From Candidatus Heimdallarchaeota archaeon (GTDB lineage Archaea > Asgardarchaeota > Heimdallarchaeia > Heimdallarchaeales > Heimdallarchaeaceae): a stretch of 64,000 nucleotides of DNA. Location: positions 1 through 64,000 of the forward strand of contig JAEOSZ010000111.1 in assembly GCA_016840095.1 (NCBI GenBank), read 5' to 3'. The translations under genes and the position numbers were made by a program. The notes beneath the pieces were generated by a model that ran no database searches, was not told where the DNA came from, and worked only from the letters and a program-made list of their open reading frames with translations. Positions 43,233 to 56,692 of the stretch are shown here, piece after piece. Numbering within the stretch: the first letter of the stretch is position 1; each line of letters begins with the position of its first letter.

Positions 43233-43351
43233 TGGTCGGGCTTCCGTGATTTGAACACGGGACCGCTCGGTGACTGCTGACGACTTGATCACTGTTCACA
43301 AGTGTGTCTTCGACTACAGCCGAGTGCTCTAAGCCACTGAGCTAAAGCCCG
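43233..43351 (-). tRNA. tRNA-Tyr(GTA) with 42-nt intron (43272-43313) at 37/38 and encoded CCA
   Basis: Acceptor CGGGCTT/AAGCCCG-A-CCA, D-stem GCTC/GAGC, anticodon stem CTCGG/CCGAG with CT-GTA-G, T-arm CCGTG-TTCAAAT-CACGG; CUGU:GCAG helix with two 3-nt bulges. Confidence 0.95.
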
Positions 43352-54691: not shown

Positions 54692-54955
54692 TCAAGATTG
54701 AGATTGTTCTTCTAGTAAAAATAGCTTTCTTAATTCTTGCATAGCTTCGTGATGGTGTAAATGTTCAAGCTTTCTTGCTGCTTCAAAGTGCTCTCCACAA
54801 AACCATTCCATAAAAGGAGGATGTTCTACAATGCTTTTCTTCTTAACCCTCTTCTCCCATTTTTTATCCTGTTTTGTTTTTTTGAAGCTGACAGTTCCTC
54901 CCTCTTCTCTGTGATCAAATTTGTTCATGCACAGCTCACAAATTGGCGGTTTCAT
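54692..54955 (-). CDS. Small putative zinc-binding protein (paralog 2)
   Basis: MKPPICELC..GG.V.F..HPP..EWFCGEH. Confidence 0.75.
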   Translation of the reverse strand: MKPPICELCMNKFDHREEGGTVSFKKTKQDKKWEKRVKKKSIVEHPPFMEWFCGEHFEAARKLEHLHHHEAMQELRKLFLLEEQSQS

Positions 54956-55210
54956 CTATAACAAATCCTTAGAGAATTTTTCTTTTAATATCTCCATTGC
55001 TTCAGACATTGTTAGTTTAGATAATTCCTTAGCTGCCTCATAATGTTTTTCACAAAACCAATCTGCGTAAGGTGGATGGCCAGTCAACCCCTCAACTTTC
55101 ATTGCTTTAATCCACCTTTCATCACTTTTACTCTTCTCAAAATAAACCAACCCTCCTTCATCAGAATCAGTAAATTCTTTGTAACAAATAACACAAATTG
55201 GCGGTTTCAT
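54956..55210 (-). CDS. Small putative zinc-binding protein (paralog 1)
   Basis: MKPPICVIC..GGLVYF..GHPP..DWFCEKH; stop abuts next ATG. Confidence 0.75.
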   Translation of the reverse strand: MKPPICVICYKEFTDSDEGGLVYFEKSKSDERWIKAMKVEGLTGHPPYADWFCEKHYEAAKELSKLTMSEAMEILKEKFSKDLL

Positions 55211-55222
55211 GATGAGTTTTTG

Positions 55223-56533
55223 TCATGTAGTCATATAAACTTTACATTGTTGAGCTAATTTCATAGTCGATGTGGGTATCATTCCTGGTGGGTCCACACA
55301 CACCCTACGTGGGTACATCACATACCCTCCTACCCCATCAGCACTTCTGGTGGGAAGTGCATTAGGATCGCTTTTAATTAGAATATTGTACGCAGCATTA
55401 ACATCAGCATTGATCTTGTAACCTAGAGCAGAAGTGAATATCCCTCGAGGATGACGTTTTCCAGTATATGTAGCACGTTTCTGAGGGAATTCATTATCCA
55501 GAAAACTGCATTTGGAAGTGTAGTCTTCCAGCACAGTATCTACAAGTATTCCTCGTTCTTCCGCTTTGTACTTCAATTGGTGGATAATCTTCAGGAAGGG
55601 GATGTTAACGAACAGCTGGGTGGTCTTCTTTCCTAAATTAACCTGCTGTTTCCACTTAGAATTATACCCTACAATCACTTCTTGAAGCTCTCGTTCAACA
55701 AATAACTCGACAAGATAGCTCGTTAGATGGTGGAGAGCATTCTTGAGCATCATCCTATATTTTTCTCGTAAATGGTAATAAGCTTGTCCATAAACTAGTT
55801 TTTGCTGGTTTTTTAATTGTTTCTTCTGCTGCTGTACGTACCGTGCTCGTAATTCTTTCTGCCTTTTCTGATAATATTGTATAATACTTTTGATTCCTTT
55901 TCCGTGGTCCTTGACAACAATCGGTTGAAATCCGAGGTTATCCACGAAGGTCACGAGGTTGTTAGTCCCTAAATCGATTGCTCCCTTCCTAGTTCTCTTT
56001 TGTATCTTTTTTGGTAGGATTTTCTCATACACCACTTCTAGAGTATACCCCACTGTTCTAGGAACTACTCTCACTTCTTTCAATCTACACCTAGCTGTTA
56101 AGCGTGTTTTATAGTAAAATCCTACTTTCTTAGGTAAGATTAACCATCCATTTCTTAATCTAGTCTGTTGGTTGGTTACAATCGCCACTCCTTCTCCATC
56201 CTTAGATTTGTATCTTGGAGTTTTTGGTATAGCTAGGAACTTCTCAGGATGGTTTTTCCACTCTTTCAATGCATGAAAATACGCTTTCCAATTTCTCACT
56301 AGCAGTTTAAGGGTGTGTTGTGCTGTGTGAGCTGGGAGAACTGAGTAAAATTCTTCTGATTTGAGTAACTTGTTGAGTTCGTAGTAATTTAGAAAATTAT
56401 TGCTTTTGGTGAGAGCTTGTTTTATCAGATAATTTGCTCGATTATAGAGATTCTTCACTTGATGACACAGTCTACTTAAAACTAGTTTATAGGATAGTTC
56501 TATGCTTTCTATTCTCCATACTACTGTCATCAT
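55223..56533 (-). CDS. tnpB: TnpB RNA-guided endonuclease (IS200/IS605-IS1341 type)
   Basis: KNLYNRANY, RuvC-I AIDLG.NNL, IVGY...WKQ, LKYKA, LEDYTSKCSFLD, RuvC-III NADVNAAYNI. Confidence 0.92.
   Translation of the reverse strand: MMTVVWRIESIELSYKLVLSRLCHQVKNLYNRANYLIKQALTKSNNFLNYYELNKLLKSEEFYSVLPAHTAQHTLKLLVRNWKAYFHALKEWKNHPEKFLAIPKTPRYKSKDGEGVAIVTNQQTRLRNGWLILPKKVGFYYKTRLTARCRLKEVRVVPRTVGYTLEVVYEKILPKKIQKRTRKGAIDLGTNNLVTFVDNLGFQPIVVKDHGKGIKSIIQYYQKRQKELRARYVQQQKKQLKNQQKLVYGQAYYHLREKYRMMLKNALHHLTSYLVELFVERELQEVIVGYNSKWKQQVNLGKKTTQLFVNIPFLKIIHQLKYKAEERGILVDTVLEDYTSKCSFLDNEFPQKRATYTGKRHPRGIFTSALGYKINADVNAAYNILIKSDPNALPTRSADGVGGYVMYPRRVCVDPPGMIPTSTMKLAQQCKVYMTT
55269..55360 (-). ncRNA. Candidate omega-RNA scaffold overlapping the tnpB 3' end
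   Basis: Hairpins GCACTTC/GAAGTGC (55341-55360) and GGGTAT/GTACCC (55311-55327); enclosing stem GATGGGGTA with TACCCACATC. Confidence 0.5.
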
Positions 56534-56692
56534 TTTTTTTACTTTATTTTTCTATAAAAGCTCCCGTAATATTTAATCTTCACCCTTCATTTAAGTTGAT
56601 TTATTATCACTTTAACATGACTATATGACAAAAATTGTTCATAAAATCTACTTAAGAGAATAATATAAAAATTTTAGGGGAAAGCGAATAGA

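Follow-up and report, generated by a model that had tools for sequence, protein, structure and literature searches.

How does an element that carries a tnpB gene and no transposase gene reach new sites? Most TnpB genes in nature lie in elements of this kind, their route to new sites is a long-standing question, and the puzzle of tnpB-only copies that far outnumber tnpA has been noted both for haloarchaea (PMC3119063) and in a census of TnpB (PMC10691335). The question is raised again by a tnpB gene in a stretch of 64,000 nucleotides from a Candidatus Heimdallarchaeota archaeon (assembly GCA_016840095.1, contig JAEOSZ010000111.1, positions 1 to 64,000 of the forward strand; the window in what follows), where the gene lies between two sequences that resemble terminal inverted repeats (TIRs). 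We propose, with a probability of about 0.55, that this locus is a tnpA-less OMEGA element of the IS607 (serine-recombinase) type, which would rely on a transposase acting in trans for its movement and on TnpB homing for its retention, with a target-adjacent motif (TAM) close to TTAT. We favour this reading because AT stands at both junctions and in the empty site, because no other duplication accompanies it, because the ends are built of tandem motifs, and because a serine tnpA lies beside relatives of this TnpB.

The inverted repeats lie at the ends of an inserted unit

The original prediction had described two 18-mers, at 55217-55234 and 56617-56634, that match at 17 of 18 positions in inverted orientation. 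Our search recovered this match at exactly these coordinates. With up to two mismatches allowed, the 18-mer was present just at these two sites in the window, while 100 shuffled sequences gave a mean of 0.03 matches and in no case two sites. The ATGAC-N3-ATGAC pattern reported for each repeat is indeed found in both, and a repeat search extended the pair to 35 nucleotides (nt) with 80% identity (55205-55239 and 56612-56646). The tnpB gene (55223-56533, minus strand) encodes a protein of 436 amino acids (aa). Since it is read from the minus strand, the 55217 copy is the 3' (right) end of the gene and holds its stop codon, and the upstream copy is that at 56617, some 85-115 nt ahead of the start codon.

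The alignment of other copies of this tnpB had been put forward as a check, and it moved the borders of the element outwards. In 50 copies, whose proteins are 59-87% identical to that of the window, homology starts at TTAT/[GA]A at the 5' end and stops with CATCAT/ at the 3' end (the slash marks the junction), and the flanks outside these bounds are unrelated between copies. The copies thus end outside the 18-bp repeats and not within them. Both the copy homology and the empty sites place the true ends 6-8 nt beyond the repeat, and the TGT...ACA inner ends proposed earlier are not the ends of the element.

The empty site, a second check proposed at the outset, was located in seven sister species and in the source metagenome, and the arms are missing there. 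Three of the empty sites in the sister species could be aligned at the junction, and they read GAGTGT, GAATGT or GACTGT, followed by AT-GAAACC (in one case GAAGCC), with a single AT. The site of another copy, L003, is empty in one species (GAGTA-AT-GAAAAG), also with a single AT. Moreover, contigs from two runs of one marine-sediment study, which is probably the source sample, join position 55205 to position 56638 and skip 1432 bp, with five ambiguous letters; the runs X3 and X4 yielded nothing. Therefore, filled and empty alleles coexist, or did so recently, and the junction is precise. The inserted unit measures 1432 bp with one AT counted, and this element of about 1.43 kb has as its cargo only tnpB and an omega-RNA-like scaffold. 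As had been stated, neither a tnpA nor a DDE gene lies inside it, which was established from the open reading frames (ORFs) and a Pfam search, and no ORF is present between the left end and tnpB.

The family to which the element belongs is large. The source assembly (3.44 Mb, 89% complete, 33% G+C) contains four full-length copies at 82-100% protein identity to the window TnpB, the window copy being counted, two further full-length copies at 64-65% identity, and several remnants. Across 25 genomes of the genus we found 329 matches, many of them at contig ends, with a maximum of 42 per genome; 21 of the 24 other genomes have matches. The source names of the homologues of the window TnpB are Candidatus Heimdallarchaeota and Heimdallarchaeaceae.

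Short derivatives are also seen. At G000:C159:38710-38745 a left arm of about 35 nt stands alone, the rest of the element being missing, and a right-end remnant at G000:C4:21385-21507 keeps the last 31 codons. Three others, L221 (G023:C197), L222 and L223 (G016:C9 and C3), are internally deleted or 5'-truncated, and all retain the last ~320 nt, from the codon of a displaced glutamate (E-D-Y-T-S-K; see below) through the omega-RNA; in L221 the first 11 codons are fused in frame to this very point. These three are independent decayed remnants, and an amplification resembling that of miniature inverted-repeat transposable elements was rejected as their explanation.

The junctions share a fixed AT

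We compared the junctions of 44 copies, all of which have AT at both ends. In the window the left (5') core AT is at 56641-56642 (minus strand, flank ..GATTTT-AT in the sense of tnpB), where homology starts, and the right one at 55209-55210 (minus strand, ..CTCATC-AT followed by GAAACC), as placed by the end of homology and by the empty sites. CATCAT is the 3' limit of homology in every one of the 44 copies. At the left junction T-T-A-T is found in 39-44 of them; the right junction is T-C-A-T, followed by a variable flank in which R and then A are favoured. The resulting target consensus, TTAT/RA, is near-palindromic. The absence of a target-site duplication, also noted earlier, was confirmed for everything beyond the 2-bp AT: the mean run of identity past the AT was 0.77, against 0.67 in permuted pairs (p = 0.26). 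The window copy has the 5-bp direct repeat TTCAT on both sides (55206-55210 and 56638-56642), which was considered as a target duplication and rejected, as it fails in other copies and only AT is common to the 44.

An AT that is repeated, and is always AT, is equally compatible with a 2-bp duplication of a fixed target and with the core of a recombinase. The element might be a non-autonomous cut-and-paste transposon of the DDE type, bounded by TIRs, which captured tnpB and inserts strictly at AT with duplication of the dinucleotide, comparable to IS630/Tc1 elements and their TA. We consider this unlikely, although several observations would suit it. On each side the arm begins at the base next to the AT, and counted from the true ends the two arms are in register, with 25 of 32 positions identical (55211-55242 versus 56609-56640); the filled site has two copies of AT and the empty site one; the target consensus is near-palindromic; and the literature knows both TnpBs carried by IS630-type elements whose ends are symmetrical and Fanzors carried by TIR elements (PMC10691335; 10.1101/2023.08.09.552727). 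On the other hand, no element with these arms carries another gene in the searched assemblies, which are incomplete, the arms are tandem direct repeats rather than one terminal recognition sequence, and the partner gene found beside relatives is a serine tnpA and not a DDE gene. To our knowledge, moreover, no DDE family makes a fixed AT duplication. A DDE transposon sharing the end, which the original prediction had proposed to look for, was not found among the arm matches examined in these assemblies, and in the source genome the arm motif stands only at tnpB copies and remnants. Of the first of its three options, a non-autonomous TIR-type element with a captured tnpB, the non-autonomous unit bounded by inverted repeats is upheld by some 50 copies and by empty sites that lack the arms, and the capture by a DDE transposon is not, the junctions resembling those of the IS607 type.

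The end regions are built of tandem motifs

The left-end arm (56609-56640, minus strand) reads GAACAATTTTTGTCATATAGTCATGTTAAAGT and contains the tandem motifs TTGTCATA and TAGTCATG, as defined by the repeat search and the copy alignments. The right-end arm (55211-55242) reads GATGAGTTTTTGTCATGTAGTCATATAAACTT in plus-strand letters and overlaps the 3' end of the omega-RNA-like scaffold and the tnpB stop codon. In each arm there are thus two 8-bp motifs in tandem that share the core TTGTC (TTGTCnnn), and their order is inverted between the two ends. The left arm is the best-conserved block of the left end across copies with 60-87% protein identity, and divergent subfamilies keep the same layout of the arms with the variant motifs GTCAT, GTCAC, GTCTT, GTCAAT and GTGTA.

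The two arms of one copy resemble each other slightly more than the arms of different copies do (similarity 21.8 versus 20.9, about +4 standard deviations in an all-pair test), and in only 5 of 44 copies does the left arm find its best match in the right arm of the same copy. Because this excess is modest and the own arm is so rarely the best match, strict covariation of the arms was rejected. In many copies the inner motif of the left arm is not that of the right, and a degenerate protein-binding motif fits the arms better than base pairing from end to end.

We also considered the repeat as a dispersed palindromic target and rejected this, given that in the source genome the motif is confined to the tnpB copies and to two remnants, the solo left end and the right-end remnant described above. 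A metagenome scan for the left arm gave four loci, of which the two that could be checked are linked to tnpB, as are all the arm matches examined in the genus and the metagenome that have a checkable neighbour. Beyond the genus, tnpB-only relatives in Promethearchaeota and Hermodarchaeota (L158, L160, L171) have inverted repeats of their own, for example TTATTTTTAATnyCCCTT at both ends, and inverted ends may be general within this group of TnpBs.

The right end coincides with the predicted omega-RNA

In the last ~155 nt before CATCAT, nucleotide conservation exceeds protein conservation. This block, which runs from GGGGTAGGAGG to CATCAT, corresponds to an omega-RNA-like scaffold (55211-55366, minus strand). 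In it a 5' stem is followed by the hairpin GGGUAUGUGAUGUACCC at 55311-55327, then by a long stem in the middle and a terminal hairpin at 55225-55247, and AUGACAAAAACUCAUC is the tail. The 5' stem shows compensatory changes, and the terminal hairpin can form in nearly all of 47 copies, with stems that vary in sequence (CUUGGC/GCCAAG, CUUGUC/GACAAG and AUGUAGU/ACUACAU are examples). The hairpin GGRUAY-GUGAU-GUAYCC is invariant. Its GUGAU loop could pair with the terminal AUCAU as a pseudoknot, and as both are invariant no covariation signal is possible between them. The inner motif of the right arm supplies the 3' arm of the terminal hairpin, and the outer motif and CUCAUCAU then form the tail. 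An Rfam search of the window returned no family in the stretch of the element.

Because conservation passes through the repeat and stops at CATCAT, the guide is expected in the variable flank beyond. By analogy with the TnpBs of IS605 and IS607 (10.1101/2023.08.09.552727; 10.1101/2023.11.20.567912), the right flank, which differs between copies, should supply it; in the window the predicted guide segment starts GAAACCGCCAATTTGTG (55189-55208, minus strand).

The flank itself has a feature of its own. Two tandem paralogous ORFs of 87 and 84 aa without a Pfam match occupy 54692-55210 (minus strand), and their first 19 nt are identical (ATGAAACCGCCAATTTGTG, at 54937-54955 and at 55192-55210). It is exactly in the start codon of the second ORF that the element is inserted, and the A and T of this codon are the right-junction AT. 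The 17-19 nt of the predicted guide therefore recur at 54937-54955, and the guide matches the first paralogue as well, although the site there is preceded by AGAT and not by TTAT. The window copy and L003 (G000:C57) both lie inside an ATG start codon (AT/GAAAC..), with the terminal AT of the element restoring the ATG, and right flanks that start with GAAAC account for 3 of 44, above the expectation from base composition.

The arrangement of the right end bears on two other options of the original prediction, namely that the 3' copy lies in or next to the guide and the upstream copy is a self-target for autoregulation, or that the two copies are paired operators of a regulator. In their favour, RNA made from the right arm would pair with the left arm's top strand, and the left arm lies ~50 nt upstream of a TATA-like box. 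Nevertheless we regard both as very improbable. Conservation that continues through the repeat to CATCAT, with a variable flank beyond, is the pattern of a scaffold with a guide after it; the inner motif is base-paired in an RNA hairpin that covaries; in many copies the two arms do not have the same inner motif; and TTAA stands beside the motif in both arms, so that such a guide would also target the element's own right end. The autoregulation option is not supported on these points. That of paired operators is not contradicted as such, but the arms coincide with the boundaries of the insertion, and operators are unnecessary and leave this exact position unexplained.

The box in question, GCTTTTATAG (56552-56561, minus strand), resembles a TATA box with a B recognition element. 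It is situated ~20-25 nt before the tnpB ATG and downstream of the left arm, and it is kept in nearly all copies; from what is generally known of archaeal promoters we read it as a putative promoter.

The search for a transposase

With an alignment of six sequences we retrieved 80 loci of distant relatives of this TnpB from other archaea and bacteria. A serine tnpA of the IS607 type lies directly upstream of tnpB in 22 of the 80, and wherever a tnpA was found beside these relatives it was of the serine type (Y1 was not searched for there). One Asgard relative has a 67-aa remnant that resembles the helix-turn-helix (HTH) domain of tnpA, and one homologue carries the source label ISTvo1, which is an IS607-family name.

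Within the genus, 9 of 25 genomes have an IS607-type serine tnpA (NF033518) above the cut-off. Genomes with such a tnpA have about three times as many family matches as those without (23 versus 7, p = 0.005, uncorrected for phylogeny and assembly quality), which would suit an IS607-type mover. Bona fide IS607 copies of the genus likewise carry tandem motifs whose order is reversed from one end to the other. These nine genomes contain complete IS607 elements (L132-L138; L133 is G024:C37:4100-8600) with a tnpA of 196 aa and a zinc-finger TnpB of 639-677 aa. Several other copies (L226-L232) have a tnpA reduced to its HTH part, and the source genome has on C8 a 40%-identical relative of the large TnpB without tnpA. 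We considered the HTH-only fragments as the tnpA of the family and rejected them, as they belong to these other IS607 elements with the 640-aa TnpB.

Several results weigh against an IS607-type origin. No tnpA was found at 79 loci of the family (0.45-1.5 kb on each side), none at the four metagenome loci with the left arm, and no IS607 tnpA above the cut-off in the source genome, which is 89% complete. The IS607 tnpA genes of the genus adjoin a different TnpB, of ~640 aa, and the ends of those elements have other motifs (CAAGTTT, spaced 11 nt) and other termini. In a quick tree the Heimdall family stands on a long branch, with nothing but tnpB-only relatives as its nearest neighbours. The IS607 ends in the literature have a GG core and lack symmetry, and the arms of the present element, at equal distance from a palindromic AT and in register with it, look more TIR-like. 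The association of copy number with an IS607 tnpA may reflect just overall transposon load or assembly quality. Finally, for a family of 329 matches, apparently still polymorphic, no cognate transposase was identified.

The source annotation of these proteins is IS200/IS605 TnpB, which raises the question of whether the element could instead be moved by a Y1 HUH transposase, as a tnpB-only member of the IS1341 group that inserts 3' of TTAT and ends in TCAT, the inverted repeat then having no role in transposition. The conserved 4-nt left target, the similar 4-nt right end, the absence of a duplication and a hairpin 18 nt from the right end agree with such an element. However, Y1 tnpA (PF01797) had no match in the 25 genomes of the genus, and the control genomes score in the same search; folded as single-stranded DNA, the left end gives no significant hairpin (z = -0.68), and it has nothing that resembles the right-end hairpin on the same strand; and the tnpA genes found beside relatives are, as said, of the serine type. 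We regard a Y1 mechanism as very improbable.

A different possibility is that the element is mobilised by a non-cognate agent, either one of two small serine recombinases conserved in nearly every genome of the genus (P0121 and P0122 types) or TnpB and its omega-RNA acting on both ends. The source genome has ORFs for serine recombinases of 243 aa (L011:1489-2220, on G000:C163) and 249 aa (L012:1489-2238, on G000:C31), in which the catalytic domain is N-terminal and the short C-terminal part is recombinase-like, and similar ORFs of about 250 aa with the resolvase domain occur in most genomes of the genus. They were rejected as IS607 tnpA, as their catalytic domain is N-terminal and they do not adjoin tnpB, and they are kept as candidate trans-acting recombinases. 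The size of the family, its presence/absence polymorphism and the lack of a cognate tnpA would all fit non-cognate mobilisation, as would the slightly greater likeness of the arms of one copy and the fact that TnpB and its RNA are the sole products of the element. Yet no direct link connects the conserved recombinases to the element, the coupling of the arms is weak, and the inner motifs of the two arms often differ, so that RNA-DNA pairing is not maintained; TnpB, in addition, is not known to transpose DNA. We judge this scenario to be about as improbable as the capture by a DDE transposon.

The TnpB protein

The protein matches the Pfam families OrfB_IS605 and Cas12f1-like_TNB and the NCBIfam model guided_TnpB (136 bits). 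Its RuvC triad, D187, E336 and D377, is invariant in 18 homologues. The glutamate is displaced: the canonical RuvC-II position is occupied by Gly (IVIGYN) and the Glu follows 46 residues further on. No C4 zinc finger is present, and E336 stands six residues ahead of the only remaining cysteine of the former finger. The AlphaFold model (pLDDT 81.8) matches the folds of the ISDra2 and ISFba1 TnpBs, Cas12f and Fanzor2, with a template modelling (TM) score of 0.58-0.69 against ISDra2 TnpB (8h1j). The intact reading frame, the D-E-D triad and the modelled fold are those expected of a RuvC nuclease, which we accordingly predict TnpB to be.

Residues 396-436 are modelled at a pLDDT of only ~30. The last ~40 codons of tnpB run through the omega-RNA DNA, and because the reading frame crosses this DNA and the last 40 residues are predicted to be disordered, the stop codon within the repeat is incidental. 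In one subfamily many copies (for example G008:C36:2306-3556 and G010:C113:28573-29820) have a single in-frame TGA near residue 400; this TGA is probably the natural stop, with homology continuing beyond it by way of the conserved omega-RNA DNA.

Outside the element, the only Rfam match of the window is a tRNA at 43236-43351 (minus strand), whose 116 nt against a model of 71 positions make an intron probable.

A proposed route of movement

If the element is of the IS607 type, the two apparent TIRs would be recombinase-binding end regions, each with two tandem TTGTCnnn motifs right after the AT core. The ends would be brought together by a serine transposase provided in trans, which would cut both AT cores and release a circle in which right arm, AT and left arm form a near-palindromic site. 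The AT of the circle would then recombine with the AT of a target, preferably TTAT/RA, with no duplication. Excision would leave the donor site as TTAT plus the right flank, and TnpB with its omega-RNA, guided by this same flank, would cut the emptied donor, whose repair would restore the element. The intact right junction, with TCAT in place of TTAT before the flank, would escape cutting. The ends, the AT cores, the empty sites, the tandem motifs, the RNA structure, the intact TnpB and the serine tnpA beside related tnpB genes are what the analysis shows, and the mover, the circle, the TAM and the guide are inferred. A pattern search of the 25 assembled genomes for head-to-tail or circle junctions gave two matches, both of them ordinary right ends flanked by GATG, and no circle joint was seen in the contigs of the source study, which are unable to show rare circles.

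The family offers unusually clean material for the question with which we started: exact ends, a fixed AT, symmetrical arms of simple motifs, empty sites in sister species, and an allele without the element in the population of the same sediment. Should a serine recombinase prove to be the mover, IS607-type transposition would extend to an AT core and symmetrical ends; if none is involved, the family points to an unknown mobilisation route. It seems doubtful that a large and still mobile tnpB-only family of Heimdallarchaeia moves without a cognate, element-encoded transposase, by means of a host serine recombinase or of TnpB and its omega-RNA. Were this so, it would be a new transposition route for OMEGA elements and would answer how tnpB-only elements spread. 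The predicted nuclease would be compact, free of a zinc finger and served by a TTAT-type TAM, and it comes with a Fanzor-like displaced glutamate from a host group, the Heimdallarchaeia, that is among the closest archaeal relatives of eukaryotes.

Comparison with known systems

Prokaryotic TnpBs are known in IS630-type elements with symmetrical ends (PMC10691335). The present element shares symmetrical ends and non-autonomous copies with the TIR-borne TnpBs and Fanzors (IS630-linked DDE-6 TnpBs; Fanzor1 and Fanzor2*). Unlike those, which have true duplications (TA, TTAN and others) and a DDE partner, it has a fixed AT and no DDE partner that we could find. With the IS1341 group and other non-autonomous OMEGA elements it has in common that it consists of tnpB and omega-RNA only, in multiple and diverse copies that far exceed tnpA. 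That group, however, is described with palindromic ends of the IS605 type and no inverted repeats, whereas here the arms are inverted and the left end lacks a hairpin.

As to the protein, TnpBs with a C-terminally shifted glutamate were described by Yoon et al. (10.1101/2023.08.09.552727), and RIIr branches with a Glu-to-Gly change by Altae-Tran et al. (PMC10691335). The Gly at RuvC-II and the invariant Glu 46 residues later liken the window TnpB to this group, which includes the pro-Fanzors and Fanzors. It differs from this group in the loss of the zinc finger and in its host, a Heimdallarchaeon and not a cyanobacterium or a eukaryote, and from the Fanzors in that its RuvC-I is an ordinary D-L-G and not DPG.

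The closest comparison is with the IS607 family (IS607, IS1535, ISC1926, ISXfa1, CboIStron). The differences are that neither the element nor its source genome has a tnpA, that the nearest relatives of its TnpB are all tnpB-only, that the core is a palindromic AT and not GG, and that the arms are much more symmetrical. The original prediction had set IS607 elements apart as lacking TIRs; this is nominally correct, but imperfect subterminal inverted repeats together with short direct-repeat motifs have been described at their ends, and the same GG is present at both termini and in the unoccupied target with no duplication (Chen et al. 2018, PMC6188088). The element of the window has both kinds of repeat at its ends, and one core dinucleotide at its junctions and in the empty target, likewise with no target duplication. 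For IS607-type elements, excision as a circle that needs matching core dinucleotides has been shown, with a TAM (TGGG) made of the core and the bases upstream of it (Žedaveinytė et al., 10.1101/2023.11.20.567912). A right junction, CGG, that is one base off the TAM GGG and thereby spares the intact element has likewise been shown, and stem-loop 3 of the right-end guide RNA (reRNA) is reported to hold the TnpA repeats (Yoon et al., 10.1101/2023.08.09.552727). In parallel to this, the element described here combines tnpB with a predicted guide RNA at its right end, its right arm forms the last hairpin of the scaffold, and the TAM predicted for it, TTAT, would again consist of the core and the bases upstream, with a right junction, TCAT, that differs from it by one base.

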